Below are positions 15,218 through 56,831 of a DNA stretch of 64,000 bases, piece after piece. Position 1 is the first letter of the stretch. Each line of letters begins with the position of its first letter. The notes below the pieces were generated by a model that was given only the letters and a program-made list of their open reading frames with translations, was not told the DNA's origin and made no database searches. The translations under genes were made by a program, and so were the position numbers. Source of the stretch: a virus. The stretch covers positions 15,504 to 79,503 of IMG/VR virus record IMGVR_UViG_3300043778_000098, one strand, 5' to 3'.

Positions 15218-15735
15218 CGCCGGAGCAGACCGAGACGCCGCCCTTCCGGCTGACGGCCCGCCTGTTCACCCCCGACCGCGTCACCGTCGAGGTGGCCGAC
15301 GTCCCTCTTCCCCCTCCTGCCACCGCAGGGAAGATCAGGGTCGCCATCCCCTACCCGGCGTCCGAGCCCGCCAGGATCGTGAGCCGGGTCGTCGTGATCA
15401 ACGAGAGCACCGGGGGAGTGGCGCGCGCGTCCGTCTGGCCGAGGGTCGTGGAACCCGGCGACATGCTGACCGTCGAGTTCGGGGCGGACAACGTCTTCGG
15501 CTTCCCCGGGTTCTCGCCGGACCGCCCGGACCAAGTCCTGGCCCCGGAGCGAACCTTCACCGGGCTGGAGGACGAACGGCTCGTCAGCGCGATCACCGCC
15601 AACCTCGCCAGCCTCAACGAGATCATCGCTGAGATGACCGCCAAGGTGTCCGGCGACCCCGAGTTCATCGCCATGGTCCGCCGGACGCTGCGCGATCACT
15701 CGCACGCGCTCGGCTTCAAGTTCGAGGGAGACTGA
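15214..15735 (+). CDS. Hypothetical protein
   Basis: ATGA overlap. Confidence 0.5.
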   Translation: MTPEQTETPPFRLTARLFTPDRVTVEVADVPLPPPATAGKIRVAIPYPASEPARIVSRVVVINESTGGVARASVWPRVVEPGDMLTVEFGADNVFGFPGFSPDRPDQVLAPERTFTGLEDERLVSAITANLASLNEIIAEMTAKVSGDPEFIAMVRRTLRDHSHALGFKFEGD

Positions 15736-30474: not shown

Positions 30475-30528
30475 GGGTCGCCTCCTCACCGCTTCCGGGG
30501 GGAGGCCTCAACGGCGGGAACATCAGGG

Positions 30529-30602
30529 CGGGGCTGGCCAGATTCGAACTGGCGACAACCCGCTTAGGAGGCGGGTGCTCTATCCGGCTGAGCTACAGCT
30601 CC
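30529..30602 (-). tRNA. tRNA-Arg(CCT)
   Basis: cccgc-ctCCTaa-gcggg. Confidence 0.9.
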
Positions 30603-30603
30603 A

Positions 30604-30678
30604 TGGAGGCGGTAACCAGAGTCGAACTGGTGTGACGCGCTTTGCAGGCGCGGGCCTGGGCCGCTCGGCCATACCGCC
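30604..30678 (-). tRNA. tRNA-Cys(GCA)
   Basis: cgcgc-ctGCAaa-gcgcg; encoded CCA. Confidence 0.9.
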
Positions 30679-30890
30679 GGGTAACTGGGCGCCTCCCCGT
30701 CCTATCCGCCGGGCGGTGCCCGGTTCTCCCTTCGTCCGGCCGTTCATGGTTCGGGGACTGGTCAGGGGGCTGTTGTAACCGGGTTTGGATCCCCGGCGAC
30801 CTGGGAGGCGCAACCGCCCAGGCTACTCTCGGCAGGAGGCCGGCAGGGGGCTTAGCCCGAAGGCGGTGTAAGCCTGCTCGCCTGCCGGCC

Positions 30891-30965
30891 TGGCGTCCCC
30901 AACAGGACTCGAACCTGTGCGCGCGGCTCCGGAGGCCGCAGCTCTATCCGCTGAGCTATGAGGAC
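30891..30965 (-). tRNA. tRNA-Arg(CCG)
   Basis: gcggc-ctCCGga-gccgc. Confidence 0.9.
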
Positions 30966-31045
30966 CCGGCATAGCCAGGCAGGGACCGCGCAGACTCCAG
31001 GAGACCCTGCGGGCGGCGGGCGCCATTTAGTTCCCTGCCCGGCCG

Positions 31046-31126
31046 AGGCGGCACCAGGTGTCGAGCCTGGTCTGTCGGAGACAACGGTTTTACGGACCGC
31101 CGGGCGTGCCGCCGCCCACTACCGCC
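31046..31126 (-). tRNA. Atypical tRNA-Tyr(GTA)
   Basis: gcggt-ccGTAaa-accgt; variable arm; altered T loop; U73. Confidence 0.6.
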
Positions 31127-31233
31127 ATGTAGACGATGAGCACACCGGGCGCGAGGCCGGCGATCTCCAGCTCCGCGAGAGCGTTAAATCCGGCTGCGCT
31201 GGCGTGCTGCGTATTGCACTATGCTCACCGCCG

Positions 31234-31306
31234 AGGGTCGCACGGGATTCGAACCCGTCAATAACGGCCTCACAAACCGCTGCCTCAGCCACTTGGCTCG
31301 CGACCC
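31234..31306 (-). tRNA. tRNA-His(GTG)
   Basis: gcggt-ttGTGag-gccgt. Confidence 0.8.
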
Positions 31307-31308
31307 GG

Positions 31309-31380
31309 TGCCCGATGGGGGACTCGAACCCCCGGCATCCTCGGTGTGGGCGAGGCGCTCTCCCGCTGAGCTAACCGGAC
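31309..31380 (-). tRNA. tRNA-Val(CAC)
   Basis: cctcg-ccCACac-cgagg. Confidence 0.85.
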
Positions 31381-31490
31381 ATGGGGCAGGGAAAGGGACT
31401 ACTCGGCCGGCCTCGCCTTTCGTCCCCGGGCGTTCCTTCCCGACGGCTGACCACGTGTTTCGGCACGCTCCGGCCTTACTCCCTGCCTTG

Positions 31491-31562
31491 TGCGCCCGGA
31501 GGGAATCGAACCCCCACACACGGTTCCGTAGACCGCAGCTCTATCCGTTGAGCTACGGGCGC
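31491..31562 (-). tRNA. tRNA-Arg(ACG)
   Basis: gcggt-ctACGga-accgt. Confidence 0.9.
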
Positions 31563-31597
31563 GTACTGGGGCGGCCCGGCTGCGCAGCCGGGCCGCT

Positions 31598-31675
31598 AAG
31601 GGCAGGCGGGACTCGAACCCGCATGCGTGGTCTGACATACCGCGCGTCAACGTCTGCCGATTTCGCCACTACCCT
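31598..31675 (-). ncRNA. tRNA-like RNA with Leu-type D arm and ambiguous anticodon (GTC?)
   Basis: Acceptor stem and canonical T arm present; irregular middle section. Confidence 0.55.
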
Positions 31676-31679
31676 CCCG

Positions 31680-31751
31680 TGGGCGTACCTGGATTTGAAC
31701 CAGGGACCTCTTCCGTGTCGGGGAAACGCGCTTCCGCTGCGCCACACGCCC
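31680..31751 (-). tRNA. tRNA-Val(GAC)
   Basis: tttcc-ccGACac-ggaag. Confidence 0.85.
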
Positions 31752-31930
31752 ATCGATCGCCGCCTGTTCAGTCTCAGGTCCGTCCCGTGGGATGCGAGCC
31801 CCGGTTGCGCCGGGGAGTCGCGGCGATCATGCCCGGGGATTCGGAGAACCTTGTCCCGGATCGATCCAGGAACGCGCCGCCCGGTCGGCGCATATGCAGG
31901 ACTCTAGCAACAAAAGCTGTCTTCGTCCAG

Positions 31931-32006
31931 CGGTCGAGACGGGATTCGAACCCGCGATGCCCTCCTTGACGGGGAGGTGGGGACGGCCAGGCTCCCCTAC
32001 ACGACC
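31931..32006 (-). tRNA. tRNA-Asp(GTC)
   Basis: cctcc-ccGTCaa-ggagg. Confidence 0.85.
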
Positions 32007-32094
32007 ATTGACGCCGATATTTCGGGTCCCCGGTTTCCCGTGCTATCGGAGCACGGGACCTGAGGCCGCGTTCTTCGCCTCGGCGCGGGCGAAG

Positions 32095-32166
32095 CTCCGG
32101 AGTTCAGACTCGAACTGAAAACCCTCCGCTTAACGGGCGGACGCTCTGCCATTGAGCTACACCGGA
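32095..32166 (-). tRNA. tRNA-Asn(GTT)
   Basis: tccgc-ccGTTaa-gcgga. Confidence 0.85.
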
Positions 32167-32341
32167 TCGCCCCCTCTCGCGGCCCCGCAGCGAGGGGGAG
32201 GCTGCGCTCAGGCGCCGGAGTGACGGCTCCGGCCGGGCCTTCCCTTTCGAGGCGTCGGCAGGGTGGGCCGACTGGAACCTCCCGCTGGCGAACAAGACCC
32301 AATACGACCCGGGCGTAAAGGAGCCAGCCGGGAATGCCTCG

Positions 32342-32409
32342 CGGACGAGGCGGGACTCGAACCCGCCGGCTCCCCGAGGGGTCTCGGTTGCGCCCGTGCC
32401 TACTCGCCT
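32342..32409 (-). ncRNA. tRNA-like RNA with 4-nt anticodon loop
   Basis: Intact T arm and acceptor stem; ccgag-accc-ctcgg. Confidence 0.5.
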
Positions 32410-32410
32410 T

Positions 32411-32487
32411 TGGTGGCGGGGGCAGGATTCGAACCTGCGTTCTTCGGATTATGAGTCCGACGAGCTACCGAACTGCTCCACCCCGCG
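32411..32487 (-). tRNA. Initiator tRNA-fMet(CAT)
   Basis: CGCGGGG 5' end; C1:A72 mismatch; encoded CCA. Confidence 0.9.
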
Positions 32488-32519
32488 CCGCCAGCCCAGC
32501 CTAGCATCGTCTGGCTCTG

Positions 32520-32592
32520 CTCCCCCAGCGAGATTCGAACTCGCGCCCTCGCCTTGAAGGGGCGGTGACCTGGGCCGCTAGTCAATGGGGGC
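32520..32592 (-). tRNA. tRNA-Glu(TTC)
   Basis: ccgcc-ccTTCaa-ggcga. Confidence 0.8.
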
Positions 32593-32671
32593 GGGCTGCT
32601 CACCGGGAGGGCGGATGCCACAGACTGTGCTCGCACCCCCTGGCCAGGGAGCCCCTCCCGGTGAGCAGACG

Positions 32672-32746
32672 TAGCCCCGACCGGCTTCGAACCGGCGTCG
32701 CCGCCTTGAGAGGGCGGTGTCCTGAGCCTGACTAGACGACAGGGCC
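32672..32746 (-). tRNA. tRNA-Glu(CTC)
   Basis: ccgcc-ctCTCaa-ggcgg. Confidence 0.9.
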
Positions 32747-32833
32747 GTGGTCCGGCGGCTTGACCGACCGCACGGGGAGGGCCCGGGGCTAGCACCCGGG
32801 TCCACGGAGCCCGTCTTAAGTGGGCCAGTCTCG

Positions 32834-32908
32834 CGCGCCGAGAGGGATTCGAACCCCCAGCACAGGGCTTAGAAGACCCTGGGTCTGTCCGATTGACTGT
32901 ACCGGCGC
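32834..32908 (-). tRNA. tRNA-Arg(TCT)
   Basis: agggt-ctTCTaa-gccct. Confidence 0.8.
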
Positions 32909-32911
32909 TCA

Positions 32912-33035
32912 GTTCGGTGCTGGTGTGCTGCTACGCCGAAGGCCTCAGGTCTTTCACCCGGCGTCGGATTCGGCCGGCCCCTATCGCCACTCCTTAGAGG
33001 ATGGCTGCCTTTAAGCCAACCTTCCAGCACCGGAC
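32912..33035 (-). ncRNA. ncRNA mimicking 23S rRNA H43-H44 (L11-binding domain)
   Basis: GCUGGAAGGUUGGCUUAAAGGCAGCCAUCCUCUAAGGAGUG...CGUAGCAGCACACCAGC, closed by a 12-bp stem. Confidence 0.75.
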
Positions 33036-33241
33036 GGGCCGCCCGGATCCCCGGCCGTCCGCTCACAGGTTAGCAGCGCTGCCCTCTGGGCTACCGGCGC
33101 CTGTCATCCCACCACCGGAGGGCGGGGAACCTGAACGCCAGTCTGCACCCCCACTCGCCGCGAGCGTGCCATTCGCCGCCCTCCCGGAGGGGGATCTGGT
33201 CCAGGGCCTCGTCCAGCAGCCAGAGCGCGATGCGCATGCTG

Positions 33242-33313
33242 TGCCTCCCCTGGGACTCGAACCCAGAATCCACGGATTAAAGGTCCGCTGCATTGTCATT
33301 GTGCTAGAGAGGC
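33242..33313 (-). tRNA. tRNA-Lys(TTT)
   Basis: gcgga-ccTTTaa-tccgt. Confidence 0.8.
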
Positions 33314-33316
33314 AGG

Positions 33317-33390
33317 TAGCGGTAAAGGGAATCGAACCCCTGGCCTCTCGAATTATGAGTTCGGCGCTCTGCCATCTGAGCTATACCGCC
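33317..33390 (-). tRNA. tRNA-Met(CAT), elongator (or Ile2)
   Basis: ccgaa-ctCATaa-ttcga. Confidence 0.8.
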
Positions 33391-33483
33391 GCGAATGGCC
33401 CTCGGACGTCCCTCGCAGCACCCCGGGCCGGGGCCCGGACCGCCGACCTGCCCGTCCGGTCGTACCCTCGCCCGACGGCCAAG

Positions 33484-33557
33484 TGGGCAACCATGGAGTT
33501 GAACCATGCGGCTAACCGCTTATCAGACGGTCCCCTTCACCGGTTGGGTAGCTGCCC
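33484..33557 (-). tRNA. tRNA-Ile(GAT)
   Basis: accgt-ctGATaa-gcggt. Confidence 0.8.
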
Positions 33558-33589
33558 TTATCGTTTCGCCCGGTACGCCGGGCGGTGAG

Positions 33590-33679
33590 CAGAGGGAGTG
33601 GGTCTCGAACCCACACGGGAGTTACCCCTGACCGCTTTCGAGGCGGCTGCCGGTAGGCCGAAGCTCGGCTTATCCCTCC
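33590..33679 (-). tRNA. tRNA-Ser(CGA)
   Basis: gccgc-ctCGAaa-gcggt; long variable arm. Confidence 0.8.
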
Positions 33680-33683
33680 AGGG

Positions 33684-33746
33684 TGGAACGTACGGGAGTC
33701 GGACCCGCCTTGCGCGCGCTGCACTGAGTCCGGTGCAATACGGCCC
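33684..33746 (-). ncRNA. Mini tRNA-like RNA lacking an anticodon arm
   Basis: Acceptor, D-like and T-like stems only. Confidence 0.45.
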
Positions 33747-34016
33747 ATGAGTGAAAACGACGAGATCAGGATGACCCTCACCGTCCGGGGGACCCGCGCG
33801 CCGCGCCTGGCCGCGCAGGCGGTCGTCAACCACGCGAAGCGCTCGCTGTTCCTGGTCGACGCGAAGCCCGGGGAGTTCGCCGCCGAGATCGAGATCTCCG
33901 TGGCGGGCGCCCCGTCGGAGCGCTCCCGGATCGACGAGCACGGGACCTGGCAGAGGGAGCGGGATTCGAACCCGCGAGGACCGGAGCCCCACGTCATTAG
34001 CGGTGACGCGCCATAG
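33747..34016 (+). CDS. Hypothetical protein antisense to the tRNA array
   Basis: Coding-like codon bias; 3' end overlaps tRNA-Ser(GCT). Confidence 0.45.
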   Translation: MSENDEIRMTLTVRGTRAPRLAAQAVVNHAKRSLFLVDAKPGEFAAEIEISVAGAPSERSRIDEHGTWQRERDSNPRGPEPHVISGDAP

Positions 34017-34036
34017 GCCAGCTAGGCGACCCCTCC
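33948..34036 (-). tRNA. tRNA-Ser(GCT)
   Basis: cgtca-ccGCTaa-tgacg; encoded CCA. Confidence 0.85.
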
Positions 34037-34141
34037 ATGACGCTGCTCCCCCGAGACGCCATTCACGGGGTGCGAGATGACCGGAAGCATCCTGGCGTCG
34101 GAGCCCGTTCACTCGGGGCCGTCGCAGCGCTGGCGGCCTTG

Positions 34142-34224
34142 TGGGCGAGGAGGGACTCGAACCCTCACGTCCTCGCGGACACCGGCACCTGAGGCCGGCG
34201 CGTATGCCGTTTCGCCACACGCCC
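34142..34224 (-). tRNA. tRNA-Leu(CAG)
   Basis: ccggc-ctCAGgt-gccgg. Confidence 0.9.
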
Positions 34225-34286
34225 ATCGCCCCGGCCGAGGCCGGGGATGCCGCACGGCGGCGCCTCCCGTGGGCGCTGCGGCAGGG

Positions 34287-34358
34287 AGCGGACAACGGGA
34301 CTCGAACCCGCGACGTCGTGCCTGGGAAGCACGTGCTCTGCCACTGAGCTACGTCCGC
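34287..34358 (-). tRNA. tRNA-Gly(CCC)
   Basis: cgtgc-ttCCCag-gcacg. Confidence 0.9.
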
Positions 34359-34418
34359 ATGCTCGGGCGCCCCTAGGAACGCTTACCCCGCGAGGGGGTG
34401 GCCGCCGAGCCGGCGCGG

Positions 34419-34492
34419 AGCGGCTGAGGGGACTCGAACCCCCGACCTAGACGTTGGCAACGTCTCGCGCTAGCCAGCTGCGCCACAACCGC
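34419..34492 (-). tRNA. tRNA-Gly(GCC)
   Basis: agacg-ttGCCaa-cgtct. Confidence 0.9.
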
Positions 34493-34493
34493 G

Positions 34494-34566
34494 AGCCCCA
34501 TTACGGAATCGAACCGTAGACCTCGGCCCTACCATGGCCGCGCTCTGCCGACTGAGCTAAAAGGGC
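34494..34566 (-). tRNA. tRNA-Thr(GGT)
   Basis: cggcc-atGGTag-ggccg. Confidence 0.9.
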
Positions 34567-34576
34567 GTGGATCCCG

Positions 34577-34647
34577 CTCCGGGAGCAGGGGTCGAACCTA
34601 CGTGACAGCCACCAAAGGGCTGCGTCCTGCCATTAGACGATCCCGGA
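34577..34647 (-). tRNA. tRNA-Gln(TTG)
   Basis: cagcc-ctTTGgt-ggctg. Confidence 0.85.
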
Positions 34648-34651
34648 CCGG

Positions 34652-34725
34652 AGCCGCCTGCCGGTTTCGAACCGGCGGCCTTCCGCTTACAAGGCGGTCG
34701 CTACTGCCATCTGAGCTAAGGCGGC
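34652..34725 (-). tRNA. tRNA-Thr(TGT)
   Basis: accgc-ctTGTaa-gcgga. Confidence 0.85.
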
Positions 34726-34729
34726 GAAA

Positions 34730-34893
34730 TGGAGCCGGGCCGGGGGCCTTGGCCGTACGCACCACGCGAAAGGTGCCCCCAACCGGATCGGACGGGCGTC
34801 CCCGCTACCCGCTTCCGGCGTCGCGCTCGCCCAACATCACGGGAGGCGCTCTATGCCAGGAGAATTCAGGCACCTTGAGCTACGGGAGGCTCC
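34730..34893 (-). ncRNA. About 160-nt structured RNA with tRNA-like 5' part
   Basis: ggagcc/ggctcc closing stem; TAGCTC...GAGC D stem with an inserted hairpin. Confidence 0.4.
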
Positions 34894-34933
34894 TGATCCC
34901 CCCGGCGGGCAGCCCAGGCCCGCATCTCCTCCC

Positions 34934-35021
34934 TGGTGTCCGAGACGGGACTTGAACCCGCACGCCCCTCGCGGGGCACCAGCACCTCAAGCTGGGGCGT
35001 CTGCCATTCCGCCACTCAGAC
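34934..35021 (-). tRNA. tRNA-Leu(GAG)
   Basis: ccagc-ttGAGgt-gctgg; encoded CCA. Confidence 0.9.
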
Positions 35022-35109
35022 GTAACCCGGCGCACCACCTCGCGACCAAGGCCCGCGACATGCATGCGCCGGAAGGGAACCCAGACGAAGCCGGCCTCTG
35101 GTTCCCGTG

Positions 35110-35182
35110 AGCCCCGAAACGGATTCGAACCGGTGACCTGCGCATTACGGGTGCGCCGCTCTTCCGACTGAGCTACCGGGGC
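35110..35182 (-). tRNA. tRNA-Thr(CGT)
   Basis: gcgca-ccCGTaa-tgcgc. Confidence 0.85.
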
Positions 35183-35231
35183 GGGAGGCTAACGTGGCGC
35201 TGGACTGCGCCTGAAGTCGCGTTAGCCGAAG

Positions 35232-35306
35232 CTGGGGTACCTGGGATCGAACCAGGGAACTCCGGGGCCAGAACCCGGCGACTTTGCCAACGTCATCCAT
35301 ACCCCA
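35232..35306 (-). tRNA. tRNA-Gln(CTG)
   Basis: ccggg-ttCTGgc-cccgg. Confidence 0.8.
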
Positions 35307-35311
35307 TTGAG

Positions 35312-35389
35312 TGGGCGAGGCAGGATTTGAACCCGCAACCCAACCCGTTTTGAGCGGGCCAGCTCTGCCGATATTGGACTCACTCGCCC
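35312..35389 (-). tRNA. tRNA-Leu(CAA) with short variable region
   Basis: gcccg-ctCAAaa-cgggt. Confidence 0.75.
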
Positions 35390-35423
35390 GTGCTCTACCT
35401 GACTCTGCCGAACTTTACTGGCG

Positions 35424-35496
35424 TGCGCCGCGAGGGACTTGAACCCCCAACTCCCGACTTAAGAGGACGGTACTCTGCCAATTGAGTTACCGGCGC
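35424..35496 (-). tRNA. tRNA-Lys(CTT)
   Basis: ccgtc-ctCTTaa-gtcgg. Confidence 0.85.
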
Positions 35497-35497
35497 G

Positions 35498-35571
35498 TGG
35501 AGCGGATGACCGGAATCGGACCGGCGTGGCCAGCTTGGAAGGCTGGTGCTCTGCCACTGAGCCACATCCGC
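35498..35571 (-). tRNA. tRNA-Gly(TCC)
   Basis: ccagc-ctTCCaa-gctgg; encoded CCA. Confidence 0.85.
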
Positions 35572-35855
35572 ATTAGCCTCCGGGGTCCTCGTCAGAGGCT
35601 CCTGGGCCGTCTTTGCGTGACGGCAGGTGGCGTGGCCGAGGCCGCCCGGAGGCGCCTTCCCGCCAGGCCCTTTACCACCAGGGGGAATCGAACCCATGGG
35701 GCCTGACTTGCGGGGTAGCGCTACCCCGCCGCGCGGCCCCGGGGACCGAACCCGGCCTTTCCCTCAGCGAGGAGGTAATCGGGCCCACCAGGGCGGCCGA
35801 TCGCCCCCGGGCCGCGTACCACGGGGGCGCCAGGCGGCGCCGTACGCCGCCGCCG

Positions 35856-35929
35856 TGGTCATGCCCTGGATCGAACAGGAGACCTGCCGCTTTTCAGGCG
35901 ACCGCTCGTTCCGACTGAGCTACATGACC
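35856..35929 (-). tRNA. tRNA-Phe(GAA)
   Basis: gtcgc-ctGAAaa-gcggc. Confidence 0.85.
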
Positions 35930-35993
35930 ATGACGAGGACCCCCGGCAGGGCGTGGCTCTTTCTGCCGCCGCACTTAGGCCATTGAGGTCCAG

Positions 35994-36108
35994 TGGCAAG
36001 GAGGGGGTCGAACCCTCGCTCGGATCAATTCGCCCGGTTCCGTGCCGCCCTCAACGGGCGGTGGTGCCGGGCAGCTTATCACCAGTGCACGCCGCACACC
36101 GCTTGCCG
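35994..36108 (-). ncRNA. tRNA-like RNA with greatly extended anticodon arm
   Basis: ggcaag/cttgcc acceptor stem; T arm; interrupted hairpin of about 65 nt. Confidence 0.55.
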
Positions 36109-36159
36109 CACACAGATAGCTGGCCTGTGCTCCAGCAGACCGCCGGCCGGACGGTCTCG

Positions 36160-36233
36160 TCGGGAAGGCCGGATTCGAACCGACGGCCTCTCGCACCCGA
36201 AGCGAGCGCGCTACCAAGCTGCGCCACTCCCCG
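36160..36233 (-). tRNA. tRNA-Pro(CGG)
   Basis: ctcgc-ttCGGgt-gcgag. Confidence 0.9.
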
Positions 36234-36236
36234 ATC

Positions 36237-36374
36237 GGGGTGCTCTTCCGCTGAGCTACCGTTGGCTTCCGCCGCCGGGCAGGATTCGAACCTGCGACCT
36301 CCCCTTGGCCAAGCTCTGTCCGCTGAGTTACCGGGCATAACCCCGGGCAGGATTCGAACCTGCGACCTCTGGCC
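36237..36374 (-). ncRNA. Two tandem circularly permuted tRNA-like units (YrlA-like topology)
   Basis: Each unit reads stem, T arm, loop-closed acceptor stem, D arm, stem. Confidence 0.65.
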
Positions 36375-36376
36375 GG

Positions 36377-36450
36377 TCGGAGTACCTGGACTTGAACCAG
36401 GGACCTCACGCTCCCCGAGCGTGCGCGCTGCCAACCTGCGCCATACTCCG
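36377..36450 (-). tRNA. tRNA-Pro(GGG)
   Basis: cacgc-tcGGGga-gcgtg. Confidence 0.85.
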
Positions 36451-36556
36451 GTGCGGCGCCGGGGTCGTGTCGCGATCACGCCCCGGGCACCTGCGCGATT
36501 CCGCCGGTCCAGCCGGTTTTCGCCTCGTCGCGCTATCGATACGCGGCCACTGCGTC

Positions 36557-36622
36557 TCCGGTTACCCCGAATCGAACGGGGGGCACCCCTTTCGAGGGCG
36601 CTGGTGGCCAGCCCTACCCGGA
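36557..36622 (-). ncRNA. Short tRNA-like RNA
   Basis: Acceptor stem; 3-nt D loop; ccccg-ttcgatt-cgggg T arm. Confidence 0.45.
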
Positions 36623-36637
36623 GCCGTGCGCCGAACG

Positions 36638-36710
36638 TCGGGGTGGCCGGTCTCGAACCGGCGACCTCCAGGTCCCAAACCTGGCGCGCTGCCAACTGCG
36701 CTACGCCCCG
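36638..36710 (-). tRNA. tRNA-Pro(TGG)
   Basis: ccagg-ttTGGga-cctgg. Confidence 0.9.
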
Positions 36711-36803
36711 TGGAGTGGTGAGTTGCTCCGGCCCGGGCGCTCGGATTCGCGCCGGGTGATGCCGGTTGCCTTGCGCCAGGCTGCCGTGCCTCGGCTCACC
36801 ACG

Positions 36804-36877
36804 TGGAGAAGATCGGATTCGAACCGACGACGCCCCGGTTGCGGGCCGGGTGCTCTACCAGACTGAGCTACATCCCC
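36804..36877 (-). tRNA. tRNA-Ala(CGC)
   Basis: cccgg-ccCGCaa-ccggg. Confidence 0.85.
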
Positions 36878-37129
36878 ATGACGCCAATGTGCCTGCGGTG
36901 CCCGCCGCTATCGGGACGGGCCGCGCTCCCCTACGGTTTACGAAAGCCTCCCGGCCACCGCAGGCACGGCGCTTGCCACTCGGACGCGGCCGATCCCGCG
37001 TCGCCGGGCGCTTATGTCCGGGGTACCCTCCCGGTCCGGGACAACCAGAAGCCGCAGGCACGATGTTCCACTAGCCTGCCGTCCCCGCTCCGCCGGGATC
37101 ATCTACGTTTCGCCCGGCTTATCCCAAAG

Positions 37130-37202
37130 TGGAGCCTAGGAGATTTGAACTCCTGACCTTCTGCATGCCATGCAGACGCGCTACCAGCTGCGCCAAGACC
37201 CC
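37130..37202 (-). tRNA. tRNA-Ala(GGC)
   Basis: tctgc-atGGCat-gcaga. Confidence 0.9.
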
Positions 37203-37598
37203 ATTGGCGGGCCCGCCCCTCCCGCGTACCGGGTAGGACGGGCCCGGCCTCCCGTCCCCCTCCGGCCGGCTGGCCCCCGATGCGAACAGGGGCGCGGCGA
37301 CACGATGGAGGAAGACGGAAGACTGTCTCCGTCGGCTCTGCGGCGTGGACCGGTTCATCCCACGGCGAGCCGGGGAAGTTCGTGCCGCACGAGCATGCAG
37401 AGCCGACGGAAGATCAAGCTGGCACGGTGCCCGGTACAGGAACGCCTTGCGGTGTCCCCAGCCTTTAGCGGCTGCTGCTCCCCGGGAGTAGCTGCATTGT
37501 CTTTCACCGTGCCTGCGGCGGGTTGGCTTCCCGCCGCGATGTTCCCGCTATTGAGGTTTCACGTAGCAGGCGCCGAGGCGCCGGGCCCGTAGGGCTTG

Positions 37599-37671
37599 CA
37601 GGGACGGAGGGACTCGAACCCCCGGCACGCAGGTTTGGAATCTGCTGTTCTGGCCTCTGAACTACGCCCCT
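37599..37671 (-). tRNA. tRNA-Trp(CCA)
   Basis: gcaga-ttCCAaa-cctgc. Confidence 0.85.
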
Positions 37672-40523: not shown

Positions 40524-42062
40524 ATGACGATTCCGTCTTTCACGTCCTACCAGCAGCCGGGCGTCTACGTTCAGGACGTCTCGACGCCGATCGTCACGAC
40601 GCCGCTGGTGCCGTCGCAGACCCTGACGCTGGTCGGCCTGGCGCAGGGGTACCGCACGGCCGTCCAGTCGCTGCTGCTGTACTACGCCACCGCGACCCCG
40701 CTGACCTACATGGGCGTCTTCACCACCGAGCAGAGCGGGCCGCCCGTCATCGCCGCCCCGGTGGTCACCACCCTGGCCGGCACCGTCCTGACGGCGGGCA
40801 TCGACTACACGCTCTCCACCGTGGCGGACCCCTCGGGCAACCCCGGCCTGGCGGTGACGAGCATCAGCCGGGTGAGCACCAGCTCCAACGTCTCCGACGG
40901 CCAGCAGGTGCAGGTCGTCTACAACTACGCCGACGCGGGGTACTTCCTGCCGCAGGTATTCACCGACTCCCAGTCGGTGATCAACGCCTACGGGCAGCCG
41001 TTCCTCTCGACGGCGCCCGCCTCCCCGACGGCCTCCCAGGTCGCCAACCCGCTGTCGGCGGCGGCCCAGGTGGCGTTCACCAACGGGGCGACCACGCTGG
41101 TCTGCGTGGCGCTCAACCCGGCCGACGGGACGCTCACCGAGCAGCTCAACTCGGCCTACGCCAAGATCGCCACCAACCCGGCCTGCACGATCGTCGTCCC
41201 GGCGCTCACCGACTCGCTGACCCCGGAGTCGGGCACGGCGGCGGCCTACGCCCAGGAGCTGGCGCAGGCGCTGAGCGCCGCCATGTGGGCGGCCTACAAC
41301 GACGGCTTCCCCCGCGTCGGGTTCTTCGGCCTGCCCGTCAACTACAGCGAGTCGAGCCTGCCGGTGCCGTCGCTGGCCAGCAGCATCGCGAGCCGCAGGC
41401 TGGTGCTCGCCTACCCCGAGATCGCCCTGCTCTACAACAGCGCCGCCAACCAGACCTTCCAGGCGTCGGGCCAGTACCTGGCGGCGGCGCTCGGCGCCCG
41501 CCTGTCGTCGCTGCCGGTCGACACCGGCCTGACGAGCCAGGTGCTGAGCGGGTTCGCCGGGCTCCCGGCGGCCGAGACGGCGGCGATGACCAACGCGTTC
41601 ATGAACTCCCTGGCCAGCGCCGGGGTGGCGGTCTGCTACGTCAACTACCAGGGGGCGCTGGTCTGCCGCCAGGGCCTCACCACCGACATGAGCGCCCTGA
41701 ACTACCAGGAGGTCTCGATCGTCCGGCAGTCGGACGCGCTGCTGACGGCGGTGAGCCAGGGCCTCCAGGCCAGCGGCCTGATCGGCTCGCCGATCACCGG
41801 CAGCACGGTCAGCGCGGTGCAGGAGGCCGTCCTCGGGATCCTGGAGGCGGCGGTCTCCAACGGGGTCATCGTCAGCTACACGAACCTGACGGTGACGCAG
41901 CAGAGCTACCCGGGCGGTTCGCCCACGGTCATCTCGGTCACGTACTCGTACCTGCCCGCGCTGCCGCTGAACTTCATCACGGTGCAGCAGAGCGTCGACC
42001 TGTCGACCGGCCTGGTCGCCTCCACGACGTCCACCCAGAACGCGAGCGGCACGGGGACCTAG
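40524..42062 (+). CDS. Tail sheath protein
   Basis: YQQPGVYV N-terminus; YLPALPLNFI C-terminus. Confidence 0.9.
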   Translation: MTIPSFTSYQQPGVYVQDVSTPIVTTPLVPSQTLTLVGLAQGYRTAVQSLLLYYATATPLTYMGVFTTEQSGPPVIAAPVVTTLAGTVLTAGIDYTLSTVADPSGNPGLAVTSISRVSTSSNVSDGQQVQVVYNYADAGYFLPQVFTDSQSVINAYGQPFLSTAPASPTASQVANPLSAAAQVAFTNGATTLVCVALNPADGTLTEQLNSAYAKIATNPACTIVVPALTDSLTPESGTAAAYAQELAQALSAAMWAAYNDGFPRVGFFGLPVNYSESSLPVPSLASSIASRRLVLAYPEIALLYNSAANQTFQASGQYLAAALGARLSSLPVDTGLTSQVLSGFAGLPAAETAAMTNAFMNSLASAGVAVCYVNYQGALVCRQGLTTDMSALNYQEVSIVRQSDALLTAVSQGLQASGLIGSPITGSTVSAVQEAVLGILEAAVSNGVIVSYTNLTVTQQSYPGGSPTVISVTYSYLPALPLNFITVQQSVDLSTGLVASTTSTQNASGTGT

Positions 42063-42811
42063 CTAGGCGACCTGGAGGCTCGGCGCGGAATTGTCTTCCC
42101 CTTGATGGCGCTTCCGTTCCGGGCCTTCACGACGGGAGGGGCGATCTGGTTGAGGTGCTTCCAGGTCCGCCCCGTGATTGCCCACCGGAGGACGGTCTCG
42201 CTGACCACGCCGCCGAGAGTTTGGTGCACCTCCCATGTCATTTTGCCGTCGCGGGCCAGCCTGCGCGCCTCGATGACGAGTTCATCCGTCAGCTTGGCCT
42301 GGGCGTTCTTCGCGCCGTTCTGCTGACGCGTCCGGCTTCTGCCTCTCAGCGACTTGTCCCTCATGTTCTCGGCGTGAGTTCCGTCGTACAGGTGCTTTGG
42401 TCTTGAGCAGGGAGGATTATCGCAGTGGTGGTTCCCCTGGTTCGCGGGGAGACAGCCGTCTGTGAGGAACATCGCCACGACGCTGGATGCGGATACCGTG
42501 CTCTGCTCCGTCCTCGGGTGGTTCCAACGGAACGATCCGTAGTTGTCCGGCTCCGGGCTTCTTGCTCCCCGCCATTCCCAGCATGAGTCTTCGTCGTCGG
42601 TGATCCCCACTTTGGCCCAGAAGCGGAACTCCAGGTCGTCCAGGTCCAGAGGGCACTCTGACCGAAGTCTGTCCCTAGTCTCCTTGGCCCTTACTCGAAG
42701 CTCTCTGAGCTGTTTCCACAGATCGGTGATCTGGTCTTCGATTTCTTCTAGCTCTCCGAGCCCCGGAAGCCATGAGGCAAGCATTCGCAGCTGTTCATCG
42801 GTGTACGCCAT
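42059..42811 (-). CDS. HNH endonuclease, leaderless
   Basis: RFWAKV...CWEWRG...HHCDNPPCSRPKHLYDGTHAEN; TATACT-N6-ATG. Confidence 0.9.
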   Translation of the reverse strand: MAYTDEQLRMLASWLPGLGELEEIEDQITDLWKQLRELRVRAKETRDRLRSECPLDLDDLEFRFWAKVGITDDEDSCWEWRGARSPEPDNYGSFRWNHPRTEQSTVSASSVVAMFLTDGCLPANQGNHHCDNPPCSRPKHLYDGTHAENMRDKSLRGRSRTRQQNGAKNAQAKLTDELVIEARRLARDGKMTWEVHQTLGGVVSETVLRWAITGRTWKHLNQIAPPVVKARNGSAIKGKTIPRRASRSPS

Positions 42812-42826
42812 GAGAACAGTATAGCC

Positions 42827-42852
42827 GTCATAACACTGGCTCGTGTTATGAC
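42827..42852. repeat. Perfect 10-bp inverted repeat
   Basis: gtcataacac-N6-gtgttatgac just before the tube gene RBS. Confidence 0.7.
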
Positions 42853-42873
42853 ATCAGGAGGTGAGATTTCTAA

Positions 42874-43419
42874 ATGGCCACGACAAAAGCACGCGTCGTG
42901 GGCTCTTTAGGAGCCTAGTCTGGTTATACAGTTCTATCGTACAACGCATCTCCCATTGCCTACTGCGAGGGGTGGGAAGATAGTGGTCAGAGAGCTTTTT
43001 CGGACGTAGGACAGCCCTACCAGTTCATCCAGCCCATTGGTGCCGAACACCCGGTCGAGATCGCGACCTCCCGCGTGATCTCGGGCGGCACCATCATGAT
43101 CACCATCCGGGAGCTGTGGTCGCAGCCGGTGTGGTGGCAGATGGCGGGCCTGGCCGGGACGTGGAACATGGTGGACATCTTCAACGCCCTGGCCGCCAAC
43201 CCGAACTACGTCACGGCGAGCATGATCATCAAGCCGCCCGGGACGGAGAGCAAGCCGTCGATGTGGCGCGGCAAGGTCTACCAGAACGTCACCGTGGTCG
43301 ACATCAACGACGGCGAGACAGTGACGGTGGGCGCGCTCGCCGTCACCAAGGGCATCACCGTCGCGTACACGCATTACCTGCCGCTTAATTCAAATCAGTA
43401 CGCGACGGCATCAGGATGA
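42874..43419 (+). CDS. Tail tube protein, interrupted by an in-frame TAG (recoding predicted)
   Basis: SD AGGAGG then MATTKARVVGS-LGA*-SGYTVLSYN...QPIGAEHPVEIAT...RELW; position after the sheath gene. Confidence 0.8.
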
Positions 43420-43502: not shown

Positions 43503-43862
43503 ATGGCCCAGAAAGTGCAGTTTGAGTTGATCAGCGACCTGGCGCTGGCCCAGGACCCGGAGAGCAGGGCCCCAGCCGCCCGCACCGTCAGCTTCTCCAT
43601 CGACGGGGAGTCCTACGAAATCGACCTCAGCGAGGGGGAGGCCCAGGAGCTGGAGGAGAAGCTCGCCCCCTACATGATCGCCGGGCGCAGGAGGGGGCGG
43701 GCCGGGGGCACGCGGGCCAGGACCGCGCTGAAGGCCGCGAGGAAGTCCGTGGACACCGTGGCGGTGCGCGACTGGGCGCGCGAGAACGGCATCGAGGTCA
43801 AGGACCGGGGCCGGGTGCCCGCCGACGTGGTGGCCAGGTACGAGGCCGCGCAGCGCGCCTAG
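43503..43862 (+). CDS. lsr2: Lsr2 nucleoid-associated protein
   Basis: MAQKV...TVSFSIDGESYEIDLS...VRDWARENGIEVKDRGRVPA. Confidence 0.95.
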   Translation: MAQKVQFELISDLALAQDPESRAPAARTVSFSIDGESYEIDLSEGEAQELEEKLAPYMIAGRRRGRAGGTRARTALKAARKSVDTVAVRDWARENGIEVKDRGRVPADVVARYEAAQRA

Positions 43863-54576: not shown

Positions 54577-55011
54577 GTGAAAGATCTCCAGCTCGTCGGG
54601 GGGGACCTGCTGTCCTCCGGGCGCGGCTTCGCCACCGTGACCGGCGCCGACTACGTCCGACAGCGCGTCGCCACCGCCCTGTCGGAGCCCTACGGCAGCG
54701 ACCCGTTCCACCCGACCTGGGGGTCGGCGCTGCCGGGCTACCTCGGCTCCCCCCAGGGCCCGGAGACCCAGGCTCTCGTCGCGGCCGAGGCGTCCCGCGT
54801 CCTCGCGGCCCTCATCGCCGCCCAGCAGCTCATCGTCACCTCCAGCGCGATGACCGGGACCCGCAGCCAGCTGGCGGCGGCGGACGTCATCGCCGCCGTG
54901 AACAGCGTCACGGCCTCGGCGGGCTCCCGGCCCGACGCGATCGCCGTGGCGGTCTCCCTCACCACCCAGGGCGGGCAGCTCGTCGAGGTGTCGCGAACGG
55001 TGAGCGGCTGA
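54577..55011 (+). CDS. Baseplate wedge gp25-like protein
   Basis: EPYGSDPFHPTWGS. Confidence 0.75.
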   Translation: MKDLQLVGGDLLSSGRGFATVTGADYVRQRVATALSEPYGSDPFHPTWGSALPGYLGSPQGPETQALVAAEASRVLAALIAAQQLIVTSSAMTGTRSQLAAADVIAAVNSVTASAGSRPDAIAVAVSLTTQGGQLVEVSRTVSG

Positions 55012-56831
55012 TGGCCAGCGCCTCCGACATCTCCTCGGCGATGGCCGCCGTCCTGGCCGCCAGCGAGCCCGACCTGGACACTTCCGTAGGCTCGGTGACC
55101 AGGAAGATCATCGACGCCGTGGCGGCGAGCATCGCCTCCGCCACCCTGGACAGCCAAATGCTCGCCTACCAGTACGACGTGAACGCGATGACCGGCGCCG
55201 CGCTCGACGCGTTCGTCCAGCAGTTCGGCATGACCCGCTACCCGGCCCTGCGGTCCACCGGCGTCGTCACCTTCACGCGGGGCACCGCCACCGACGTGGT
55301 GACCATCCCCGTCGGGGCCCAGGTGGGCAGCGTCGACGGAAGCGTCGTCGCCCAGACCCTGACGGCGGCCGTCCTCAACCCGGCCGCCCTGTCGGCGTCG
55401 GTGCCAGTCCAGTCGGTGACCGCCGGGCCCGGCGGCAACGCCCCGGCCGGGGCCATGACGCAGATCCTCACCCCGGTCTCCGAGATCACGTCCGTCACCA
55501 ACGTCAACGCCCTGTCCGGAGGGGCCAACCAGGAGACGGACACCCAGCTTCAGGCCCGGTTTTCCGCCAGCGCCTTCAAGAACATGGCCGGGACCAGCCA
55601 GATGTTCCTCGGCATCGCGACCAACGACCCGGACTGCACGGCGGCCAACGTCCTCGACGGCGCCACCCGGTTCCGCGAGCAGCTCCAGATCGCCAGCGGC
55701 CAGGCGGTCAGCACGGTCTCCGGCGCCCAGTACGTCTACGCCTACGGCGAGGTGGTCGGCCAGGACATCGACAACGGCGACGTCGCCGCCCCCGGCGTCC
55801 AGTACACCTGGGACTACGAGGCCGTCCCGCCCTCCGTCGTCGTGATCGACAGCAGCTACTTCCCCGCAGGCCAGCTGATCGACGTCAGCTACCTCTACAT
55901 GGACGAGTTCTCCCGCAACGACCCCGCGTCCGGGATCTACAGCCGGGTCGACGTCTGGTGCGCCGGGTCCCGCCCCACCGCCGCCGCCGCCACGGTCAAG
56001 TACACGAGCGCGACCACCTTCTCCTCGTCCGCCGAGTCGGACTGGTACGCCGGGGACTTCGTCCGCCCTGACGGCGCCCAGCCGGCGCCGGGGAACGTCT
56101 ACATCGCGCTGCCCTACGGGCCGATCCTGACCCTCCCGCCGACGATGACGCTCGACGGCGTGACCTACGGCCTGGCCAGCCCCCAGTACCCGCTGGGGAC
56201 CGTCTCGGGCGGCGTCACCTACGCCTACCAGATCATCCACCGCACCGGCGCCTACGGCTGGAGCCCCTACTCCGACTTCGGGATCGAGTGGCTCGCCTCG
56301 GCGCAGCCGCCCAGCGGGGTCCCGGTCACCGTCAGCGAGGACTACACCTACAACGACGTCCCCTACGCCATCCAGCAGAACCTGGAGAACTGGCGGCTGG
56401 CCGGGACCGACGTCCAGGCCCACCAGGGCATCGTGGTCTCGCTCCAGTTCAGCCTCGCGATCGTCTACGACCCGTCGGTCACCCAGTCGGTCACGCAGGC
56501 CGCCGTCAGCGCCTCGCTCCATGCCTACCTGTCGCAGCTCGGCTTCAGCTCGCGGATCTACCCCAGCTCCGTCATCCAGGCGGTGGAGGGCACCCCGGGG
56601 GTCCTGGCGTCGCGGTTCCTCACCGGAGCCGACTACCCCGACTGGTCCCCGTCCGCGCCCGACGACTTCGACGTCGGCATCCAGCAGGTCTACGACGGGG
56701 TGGTGGTGGCCAGCTACGTCGACTCCAGCGGGAACCCGGTCGACGTCTCCTTCGGGGCGGCCCAGCTGCCCAGCTTCGGCGGCGCCGTGCTGGTGACCAA
56801 GGCCAACAACACCATAGGAGCTTTTGCGTAG
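55011..56831 (+). CDS. Baseplate J-like protein
   Basis: STGVVTFTR...GPGGN...GGANQETDTQLQAR. Confidence 0.85.
   Translation: MASASDISSAMAAVLAASEPDLDTSVGSVTRKIIDAVAASIASATLDSQMLAYQYDVNAMTGAALDAFVQQFGMTRYPALRSTGVVTFTRGTATDVVTIPVGAQVGSVDGSVVAQTLTAAVLNPAALSASVPVQSVTAGPGGNAPAGAMTQILTPVSEITSVTNVNALSGGANQETDTQLQARFSASAFKNMAGTSQMFLGIATNDPDCTAANVLDGATRFREQLQIASGQAVSTVSGAQYVYAYGEVVGQDIDNGDVAAPGVQYTWDYEAVPPSVVVIDSSYFPAGQLIDVSYLYMDEFSRNDPASGIYSRVDVWCAGSRPTAAAATVKYTSATTFSSSAESDWYAGDFVRPDGAQPAPGNVYIALPYGPILTLPPTMTLDGVTYGLASPQYPLGTVSGGVTYAYQIIHRTGAYGWSPYSDFGIEWLASAQPPSGVPVTVSEDYTYNDVPYAIQQNLENWRLAGTDVQAHQGIVVSLQFSLAIVYDPSVTQSVTQAAVSASLHAYLSQLGFSSRIYPSSVIQAVEGTPGVLASRFLTGADYPDWSPSAPDDFDVGIQQVYDGVVVASYVDSSGNPVDVSFGAAQLPSFGGAVLVTKANNTIGAFA

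Follow-up and report, generated by a model that had tools for sequence, protein, structure and literature searches.

A UUA-led coding gap in the tail tube gene of a soil phage, probably skipped by the ribosome and part of a mobile endonuclease cassette

Introduction

The tail tube gene of an uncultured soil phage, found on a stretch of 64,000 nucleotides (nt) from the IMG/VR record IMGVR_UViG_3300043778_000098 (positions 15,504 to 79,503; hereafter the window), is interrupted near its start by 15 nt that contain an in-frame stop codon. It is probable that the ribosome bypasses this gap in the tube mRNA and that the gap belongs to a mobile endonuclease cassette. The gap is real, related gaps of one design are found in other tube genes, the gene is under purifying selection, and the gaps co-occur with inserted endonuclease DNA. 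From the comparison of these sequences we infer the hop itself and its efficiency, and a function of the gap in immunity is suggested by analogy with phage T4.

Programmed translational bypassing is among the rarest recoding events, and its best-studied phage case is gene 60 of T4. The form that is triggered by the codon UUA rests so far on three terminase genes, to which a tail tube gene is added here. The gaps of the tube genes form a natural series (14 gaps of 2-16 nt at five sites), and what they have in common suggests what such a hop needs, namely a UUA that is decoded slowly in the A site, and a codon on which the tRNA can re-pair. Their link to endonuclease genes and recoded flanks would also give an evolutionary reason for the gaps, the immunity of a selfish cassette, and would join the T4 and Streptomyces paradigms. 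There is a practical side as well. Annotation pipelines will call gapped genes broken, and spotting TTA-led gaps would rescue essential genes in metagenomic actinophages.

The tube gene and its gap

The viral contig from IMG/VR to which the window belongs is 79.5 kb long, has 70% GC and is estimated to be ~50% complete. The tube gene lies at 42874-43419 on the plus strand, and the 15-nt gap lies at 42907-42921 between matching TCT codons. The codons run GTG GGC TCT (42904-06), then TTA (42907-09) GGA GCC TAG (42916-18) TCT (42919-21), then GGT TAT. Translated as it stands, the frame gives MATTKARVVGS, then LGA and a stop, then SGYTV..., and it is open as far as the TGA at 43417-19. The protein encoded after the gap matches PHROG 2756, a virion structural protein family (E = 8.5e-28), and is 31-35% identical to gp112 of Rhodococcus phage E3, annotated as 'tail tube protein', and to its homologues in phage Finch and Mycobacterium phage Catera. 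In these phages the matched gene is the one after the sheath gene, and the sheath gene of the window stands in the same gene order. A Pfam search returned no match for either the tube or the sheath protein, and near-identical phage records were not found in the GenBank phage collection searched.

The original prediction, made from the letters of the window, had listed a Shine-Dalgarno (SD) sequence, an ATG, a pair of TCT codons, a TTA, an AGGAG, a TAG, a hairpin and a frame open to 43419. All of them are in place; the SD-like AGGAG is at 42909-13, 5 nt upstream of the second TCT. It had also held that removal of the 15 nt gives a conserved RVVGSGYTV. The uninterrupted relatives read the same, and alignment with homologous tube genes confirms an insertion of exactly 15 nt. 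The peptide in front of the gap is likewise kept in relatives (MATTQARVVGS...). A restart downstream of the TAG was considered and rejected: the first in-frame ATG, GTG or TTG, at 43075, would delete 52 conserved residues.

The gap is genuine DNA and not an assembly error, a possibility that the original prediction itself had named as one that would refute it. A Logan contig from the probable source run, which is an independent assembly, reproduces 42600-43191 with 0 differences and 0 gaps. Two contigs from two other soil studies (X2 and X6, ~95% identical) cross the gap without an indel, so that it is reproduced in three independent data sets. Inside the gap their sole change is 42921 T>C, by which the landing TCT becomes TCC. 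Their changes downstream are nearly all at third codon positions, and they include TCG>AGC, a change from Ser to Ser by three substitutions. Because the changes in X2 and X6 are nearly all synonymous, purifying selection acts on the gene both before and after the gap, and the gap has persisted through ~5% divergence. The closest relative, L018, whose tube protein is 98% identical, is set apart from the window by two insertions only, ~830 bp between sheath and tube and the 15 nt. In the 501-nt segment after the gap the two differ at ~65 nt and at only 3 amino acids; in the segment before it there are 7 differences in 30 nt, and the peptide is the same except for the start codon, which is TTG in L018.

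These observations bear on a first alternative, in which the gene is simply broken, whether by an assembly error, as a pseudogene or with a second intact copy behind it, and its resemblance to a bypass element is a coincidence. With a contig that is half complete there is room for a second copy in this genome. On the other side stand the independent assemblies and studies that reproduce the gap, the synonymous changes that flank it, and the TTA with a cognate or near-cognate landing codon in all 14 gaps described below. In addition, the complete relatives G001 (161.7 kb), G002 (166.5 kb) and G003 (146.9 kb) have one tube gene each, and it is split. Each of the three was scored 100% complete, G001 and G003 with terminal repeats and G002 classed as linear. 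The second intact tube gene that the original prediction named as a danger is thus absent from these relatives, although the half-complete genome of the window may hold one. Taken together, a broken gene is extremely improbable.

A second alternative is that the gap is removed before translation, by RNA excision or editing, or that a sub-population of the DNA lacks it. The metatranscriptome contig X20 starts downstream of the gap (43018), which leaves room for this idea. However, the DNA contigs from three studies show the gapped form only and no variant without the 15 nt, with the proviso that contigs may mask rare variants. Group I or group II introns or other Rfam features are not expected in such short inserts, and we know of no mechanism that excises segments of 2-16 nt from bacterial or phage mRNA. 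Removal at the level of nucleic acid is therefore very unlikely.

A series of UUA-led gaps in related tube genes

Relatives of the tube gene were fetched from 13 IMG/VR loci and 80 metagenome loci (30-98% identical) and reduced to a non-redundant set of 70 tube genes. Gaps were detected by tblastn frame analysis over all loci, followed by inspection. Uninterrupted genes make up 58 of the 70; in these the Ser and Gly codons of RVVGSGYTV are adjacent. The 15 nt of the window occur in none of the 13 IMG/VR and 80 metagenome relatives fetched. The remaining 12 genes, the window counted, carry 14 gaps, which represent 10 distinct alleles at 5 sites (Table 1); L058 and L064 have two gaps apiece.

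Table 1. Alleles of the gap in tube genes. Brackets enclose the gap; the codon before it is the proposed take-off codon, with which the proposed landing codon is compared.
Site	Locus	Sequence	Length	Landing codon
S/G	window	TCT[TTAGGAGCCTAGTCT]GGT	15 nt	TCT, identical
S/G	L023	TCT[TTAGGACCCATAATCC]GGT	16 nt (homologous gap, same site as window)	TCC, synonymous
Y/T	L058, L064	TAT[TTAC]ACC	4 nt	TAC, synonymous
W/E	L010, L031	TGG[TTAATTGT]GAG	8 nt	TGT, 2/3
W/E	L025	TGG[TTAATTGG]GAG	8 nt	TGG, identical
W/E	L011	TGG[TTACCTGG]GAG	8 nt	TGG, identical
W/E	L012	TGG[TTAATGC]GAG	7 nt	TGC, 2/3
Q/F	L017	CAG[TTACTTAG]TTC	8 nt	TAG, 2/3
Q/F	L058	CAG[TTAGGCAG]TTC	8 nt	CAG, identical
F/I	L043, L064, L070-L075 group	TTT[TT]ATC	2 nt	TTT, identical (overlapping)

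A zero-frame TTA directly follows the take-off codon in 14/14 gaps (10/10 alleles, 5/5 sites). This trinucleotide is rare in the contig, where it accounts for 133 of ~79,500 positions on the plus strand, and in frame it is nearly absent from the confident coding frames. In the high-GC clade, the uninterrupted tube genes have no in-frame TTA among their first 133 codons. Chance falls far short of explaining this pattern. Among the 10 alleles, the landing codon is identical to the take-off codon in five, is a synonymous codon for the same tRNA in two, and agrees with it at two of three positions in three. When the gap is excised, an open frame of at least 150 codons results in 12/12 genes. Only three features are common to all gaps, namely the TTA after the take-off codon, a landing codon that is cognate or near-cognate, and a junction peptide that stays intact. 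Since each gap has a UUA and a codon for re-pairing, a hop from take-off to landing codon would account for every one of them. The UUA-triggered hop from TCT to TCT proposed in the original prediction is strongly supported by this comparison of 14 gaps (10 alleles, 5 sites) in 12 genes.

The lengths of the gaps narrow the choice of mechanism. They are 2, 4, 7, 8, 15 and 16 nt and fall into all three classes modulo 3, and even homologous gaps at one site vary in length (15 vs 16 nt; 7 vs 8 nt). Thus, no single frameshift or stop-codon readthrough serves all of them. A programmed +1 or -1 ribosomal frameshift was rejected, since the gap of the window is in frame with the TAG and the related gaps of 2, 4, 7, 8 and 16 nt need different shifts. 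For the window by itself it is conceivable that the 15 nt are translated, with Leu inserted at UUA and a suppressor or near-cognate tRNA decoding the TAG, which would add L-G-A-x-S after Ser11. As this gap is in frame, one event would suffice. Nevertheless, no suppressor is found among the 39 tRNAs of the contig, the homologous 16-nt gap of L023 shifts the frame, and so do the others of 2, 4, 7 and 8 nt. The junction GSG(Y/F)T is moreover invariant or nearly so, also in the homologues of Rhodococcus and Mycobacterium phages at ~30% identity, and for this reason five extra residues are unlikely to be tolerated there. Translation of the gap is most unlikely.

RNA structure is less uniform than the codons. 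A 6-bp hairpin is predicted in the window (Table 2), L023 has one of 8 bp in a shifted register, and folding of the gap region of L017 gave no structure. The fold z-scores are modest, -1.0 for a 47-nt stretch of the window and -2.0 for L023, neither of them significant, and a general role for RNA structure in the series is not claimed. In a tree of the tube proteins the gapped genes are scattered among ungapped ones; the branches within the clade are too short for counting independent gains.

A probable homing-endonuclease cassette next to the gap

A homing-endonuclease gene of the HNH type lies directly upstream of the tube gene, and it was missed by the original prediction. Sheath and tube genes are 27 nt apart in L018, which represents the empty allele, and 815 nt apart in the window. 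The inserted gene (42059-42811) has its best three PHROG matches to endonuclease or HNH endonuclease families (E = 1.8e-17 to 1.2e-13), and in Pfam it gives weak, sub-threshold matches to HNH_3 and zf-His_Me_endon. L023, whose gap is at the same S/G site, has a 64% identical HNH homologue in the same place. The open reading frame (ORF) lies 62 nt upstream of the tube start. This intergenic region contains a perfect 8-bp inverted repeat, a possible operator or RNA hairpin, in which the loop base 42837 alone is changed in X2 and X6.

The association of gaps with such DNA extends over the series. Inserted DNA, defined as a sheath-tube spacing above 250 nt or an endonuclease match directly upstream, is present in 12/12 gapped genes and in 7/54 ungapped ones (47 without), with a Fisher p = 1e-8 that is inflated by relatedness. 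Four further ungapped genes, whose sheath-tube junction is undefined, stood outside this test. In 9/12 gapped genes the inserted DNA is an HNH homing-endonuclease gene or a recognisable remnant of one. The family of the endonuclease also tracks the site of the gap: the HNH type of the window goes with S/G gaps (window, L023), the HNH-HTH type of L012 with W/E gaps (L010, a remnant in L011, L012, L025 and L031), and an HNH-AP2 type with Q/F and Y/T gaps (L017 and L058, with an AP2 remnant in L064).

A tract adjoining the gap in the window is synonymously recoded and enriched in AT (Table 2), and it is likely a co-conversion or immunity tract. Its GC content is 40-60%, as against 60-73% in L018. 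In the tube gene of the window, the GC content at third codon positions (GC3) is 0.56 over the first 50 codons and rises to 0.97 over the 100 that follow. When all loci are compared, GC3 of these 50 codons is lower where DNA has been inserted (0.70) than where it has not (0.86; p = 2.6e-6).

Table 2. Features of the sheath-tube region. Positions are those of the window; take-off and landing codons refer to the proposed hop.
Feature	Position	Strand	Basis
Tail sheath gene, directly upstream of inserted cassette	40524-42062	+	PHROG 2839 tail sheath, E = 1.2e-52
~830 bp inserted between sheath stop and tube start relative to empty allele L018	42043-42873		Global alignment of window and L018
Free-standing HNH homing-endonuclease gene, 250 aa, divergent from tube gene	42059-42811	-	PHROG families 1872, 826, 59
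Perfect 8-bp inverted repeat CATAACAC-N6-GTGTTATG in 62-nt endonuclease-tube intergenic region	42829-42850		Read from sequence
Shine-Dalgarno AGGAGG of tube gene	42856-42861	+	Sequence; GGAGG-type sites equally spaced in relatives
Tube coding segment 1, ATG + 10 codons, MATTKARVVGS, last codon the take-off TCT (42904-42906)	42874-42906	+	Translation
Predicted 6-bp hairpin GGCUCU/GGAGCC, loop UUA, take-off codon in 5' arm	42901-42915	+	Minimum-free-energy fold
Coding gap TTA GGA GCC TAG TCT, with UUA for the A site, in-frame TAG and landing TCT (42919-42921)	42907-42921	+	Missing in every relative fetched
Synonymously recoded, AT-enriched tract beside gap	42919-43008	+	DNA 63-83% identical to L018, protein identical
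Tube coding segment 2, from GGT (GYTVLSYN...) to TGA stop	42922-43419	+	Translation

Other insertions are seen around the tube genes. At three loci (L071:600-1470, L027:850-1470 and L032:500-1470) the sheath-tube insert is 625-974 nt long and GC-rich, with several open frames and repeat-like peptides, and no recognisable endonuclease was found in it; L071 has the TTT[TT]ATC gap, and L027 and L032 are ungapped. In L010 (840-2100) two more minus-strand ORFs lie beside the HNH gene between sheath and tube. One resembles a HIT-family or GalT-type protein (HLHVHLVPR motif), and the other encodes a conserved ...YN(H/S)PGTARRYH(I/V)VRD... protein, of which a remnant is present in L043:1109-1375. A different kind of insertion is found in L086 (1471-2925; metagenome contig OEPS010000346.1), whose tube gene contains ~320 aa in frame between ...NYMNC and CTIVDISD.... 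The insertion has a LAGLIDADG-like motif (LGYLYGWLAGYFATDGHM), ends in ...LTGN/C and gives no match in Rfam; these motifs give it the look of an intein that includes a homing-endonuclease domain. The tube gene seems to be a hot spot for selfish elements. The gene directly after it in the window (43503-43862) encodes a phage Lsr2 homologue with dimerisation and DNA-binding domains (E = 2e-17 and 1e-14).

Gaps in other genes

A second TTA-led gap is found in the complete relative G001, at C1:89757 (L102:9757). It reads CAA[TTAGCAA]TAC and lies ~55 codons from the start of a gene for 757 aa in the tail or baseplate region. An HNH-AP2 ORF is again directly upstream, on the minus strand (L102:9039-9443), and the orthologous gene of the window (~55005-56831) is uninterrupted. 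Scans of the contig of the window by GC3 frame and by landing codon found no second gap in it. Candidates at window 6893, G001 43796 and G001 82713 were rejected as out-of-frame TTAs at ordinary gene starts. Another, at window 5778 on the minus strand, was taken for an antisense shadow ORF, because GC1 is below GC2 in it and a long ORF on the plus strand overlaps it. Further possible TTA-led gaps were noted in G003, at C1:37905 (L108:17905) and at C1:139301. The former reads GAG[TTAGGAG]CTG, with the GC3 coding frame at +1 after the TTA.

UUA, tRNAs and the host

The host is likely a high-GC actinobacterium, because the contig has 70% GC and an Lsr2 gene and relatives of the phage infect Mycobacterium, Rhodococcus and Gordonia. 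A scan of bacterial genomes for relatives of the tube gene, as hosts or prophages, found none. From established knowledge of codon usage, UUA would be slow in such a host.

The phage brings many tRNAs of its own. The cluster of the window (30526-37671, minus strand) has 39 genes for 19 amino acids. No tRNA-Leu(UAA) is among these 39 tRNAs of the contig, the 40 of G001 or the 2 of G003. The Leu anticodons of the contig are CAG, GAG and CAA only, the same three as in G001, and no tRNA-Leu(UAG) is found in the cluster of the window. The phage tRNAs cover AGA, AGG, AAA and UUG (in G001 also AUA) and not UUA. One call in the cluster, a tRNA-Gln(CTG) at 35730-35830, is unusually long at 101 nt. Translation genes of the phage, that is, a tRNA set without Leu-UAA and uL10/bL12, might favour hopping.

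These properties could also be read in terms of regulation. The output of tube protein would then be set by charged tRNA-Leu(UAA), in the manner of bldA, and tail assembly would sense the developmental state of the host: scarce tRNA would give much tube protein, and abundant tRNA an abortive 14-mer. The hop is still required, and only the purpose of the gap differs. A similar idea has been put forward for the terminase of phage phiHau3 (Smith 2013, as cited in PMC10732093). It agrees with a regulatory role that UUA triggers every gap and that no phage tRNA-Leu(UAA) was found. However, Streptomyces has no support as the host, with no relatives in the bacterial genomes scanned; most close relatives are gap-free, including L018 with its 98% identical tube protein; the gaps occur only alongside inserted endonuclease-type DNA; and five sites plus other genes suit repeated selfish insertion better than a tuned switch. 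A regulatory purpose is unlikely on this evidence. The inverted bldA-dependent developmental switch in Streptomyces, to which the original prediction had led, is unsupported, as that host has no support here and the gaps track inserted endonuclease DNA. A selfish mobile cassette of the T4 mobA/gene 60 type is the better-supported reason for the gap, because gaps are found only with sheath-tube inserts and the recoded tract adjoins. Such a cassette would account for the gap, so that a developmental switch, though conceivable, is not needed as an explanation.

Proposed decoding and origin of the gap

The events in the tube mRNA may be pictured as follows. Initiation at the ATG at 42874 would give MATTKARVVGS, with peptidyl-tRNA-Ser on the UCU at 42904-06 in the P site and UUA, the rarest codon in an actinophage of 70% GC, in the A site. 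During a pause at UUA the peptidyl-tRNA would unpair, the mRNA would slide by 15 nt, and the tRNA would re-pair with the UCU at 42919-21. Decoding would pick up at GGU and yield the tube protein ...RVVGS-GYTV..., with a tryptic junction peptide VVGSGYTVLSYNASPIAYCEGWEDSGQR. Where UUA is decoded instead, the product would be a dead-end peptide of 14 residues that terminates at the in-frame TAG.

The gap would not have originated as a regulator. It would be one part of a mobile cassette that has three, the HNH gene at 42059-42811, the gap and the recoded first ~30 codons of the tube gene. By analogy with T4 mobA and gene 60, gap and recoding together probably destroy the target of the endonuclease in the tube gene. 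A genome that carries the cassette would thus be immune, and alleles without the gap would be cut and converted.

Several points weigh against bypassing of a cassette-borne gap. Each virion requires hundreds of copies of the tube protein, so that either the hop is efficient or the loss is tolerated. An alternative reading of the 3-nt direct repeat is a microhomology scar left by the insertion. Hairpin and internal SD are not general across the series, and the fold energy is unremarkable. The scarcity of tRNA-Leu(UAA) in the host is assumed from GC content and codon usage. The sole metatranscriptome contig, X20, covers 43018-43200 of a relative, which is outside the gap. As for the cassette, the inserted DNA of three gapped lineages, L043, L064 and the L071 group, lacks an intact endonuclease (that of L064 holds an AP2-domain remnant only, and that of L071 repeat-like sequence), and seven loci have inserted DNA and no gap. 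The test of association between insertion and gap ignores phylogenetic non-independence, and the clade that bears the gaps is poorly resolved in the tree.

A wider proposal can be made tentatively, at somewhat less than even chances: homing-endonuclease cassettes of high-GC soil actinophages would routinely carry a UUA-led gap of 2-16 nt as their immunity half, hopped at the slow UUA. If this is true, T4 gene 60/mobA and phiHau3 would be examples of one widespread class of mobile element, the natural alleles of the tube genes would form a series from which the rules of short-range ribosome hopping can be read, and hopping would be efficient enough to supply one of the most abundant proteins of the virion.

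Comparison with known systems

Short-hop bypassing at hungry codons is reportedly known from E. coli reporters, in work ascribed to Weiss et al. in 1987 and to Gallant and Lindsley in 1998. The hop proposed here is similar in that a slow codon occupies the A site and the peptidyl-tRNA re-pairs a few nt downstream, which includes the overlapping +2 case of TTT-TTA. The E. coli hops were engineered or induced by starvation and were of low efficiency, whereas the gaps here are fixed in natural essential genes. In mitochondria of the yeast Magnusiomyces capitatus, Lang et al. are said to have described in 2014 GC-rich byp elements of 27-55 nt. There, too, essential genes contain many short mobile inserts that the ribosome skips, from a take-off codon to a matching landing codon. 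The byp elements differ from the present gaps in their mitochondrial setting, and they have neither a UUA trigger nor an endonuclease partner.

The closest parallel for the cassette as a whole is T4. According to a preprint, the gap of gene 60 travels with mobA and protects its carrier from nicking by MobA (bioRxiv 10.1101/2022.08.31.505936, citing Bonocora 2011). In both systems a free-standing HNH endonuclease gene stands beside an essential gene with a non-coding gap, and a divergent flank, here the recoded tract, lies beside the element. In both, take-off and landing codons are the same, a hairpin (here a predicted one) contains the former, and an SD-like element lies in front of the latter. 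On the other hand, the gap of the window is 15 nt long and that of T4 50 nt, and the trigger would be the rare sense codon UUA, whereas T4 uses a stop codon (UAG) and a nascent-peptide signal. The two elements share no sequence homology. The endonuclease gene here is upstream on the opposite strand, and the gene is not split by it. Protection from cleavage is suggested in the present case by co-occurrence and by the recoded tract. As far as its sequence tells, the element of the window would function as the T4 cassette does, yet its different trigger and length and the lack of homology keep it from being counted as a member.

For the hop itself, the closest parallel is in phages of Streptomyces, and the precedent for UUA-linked bypassing in a terminase gene to which the original prediction appealed does exist (phiHau3, PMC10732093). 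Four sites with UUA-led gaps were found in 3 of 100 terminase genes (Antonov et al., 2023, PMC10732093): two of 10 nt in the large terminase gene of phiHau3, and others in the StrepC.1 and S. catenulae prophages, the latter of 7 nt (PMC10732093). The phiHau3 terminase with its UUA-led gaps gave a full-length product in S. coelicolor, and, after UUA had been exchanged for UAA, mass spectrometry detected a junction peptide in E. coli (PMC10732093). The word 'homing' occurs 0 times in that paper, and homing endonucleases are unmentioned in it (PMC10732093); our literature search found no paper linking UUA gaps with homing endonucleases. The gaps of the tube genes differ from the terminase gaps in being linked to homing-endonuclease genes and a recoded tract. 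They also form a larger series (14 gaps at 5 sites) with a range of 2-16 nt, and the gap of the window is in frame with an internal TAG. The interrupted gene is one for a tail tube, whose product is needed in very high copy, and the hop is proposed here from sequence alone. The carriers are uncultured soil myoviruses of ~147-166 kb, with phages of the Bxz1 and E3 types as distant relatives. The likenesses are nevertheless close. As in the phiHau3 terminase, a zero-frame UUA stands directly 3' of the take-off codon, and a short non-coding block that is missing in homologues interrupts a conserved amino-acid junction. For those genes, too, a landing codon, an internal SD and a hairpin close by have been proposed, one gene may have two gaps (here L058 and L064), and the setting is a high-GC actinophage. 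By these sequence features the element of the window is of the phiHau3 type.

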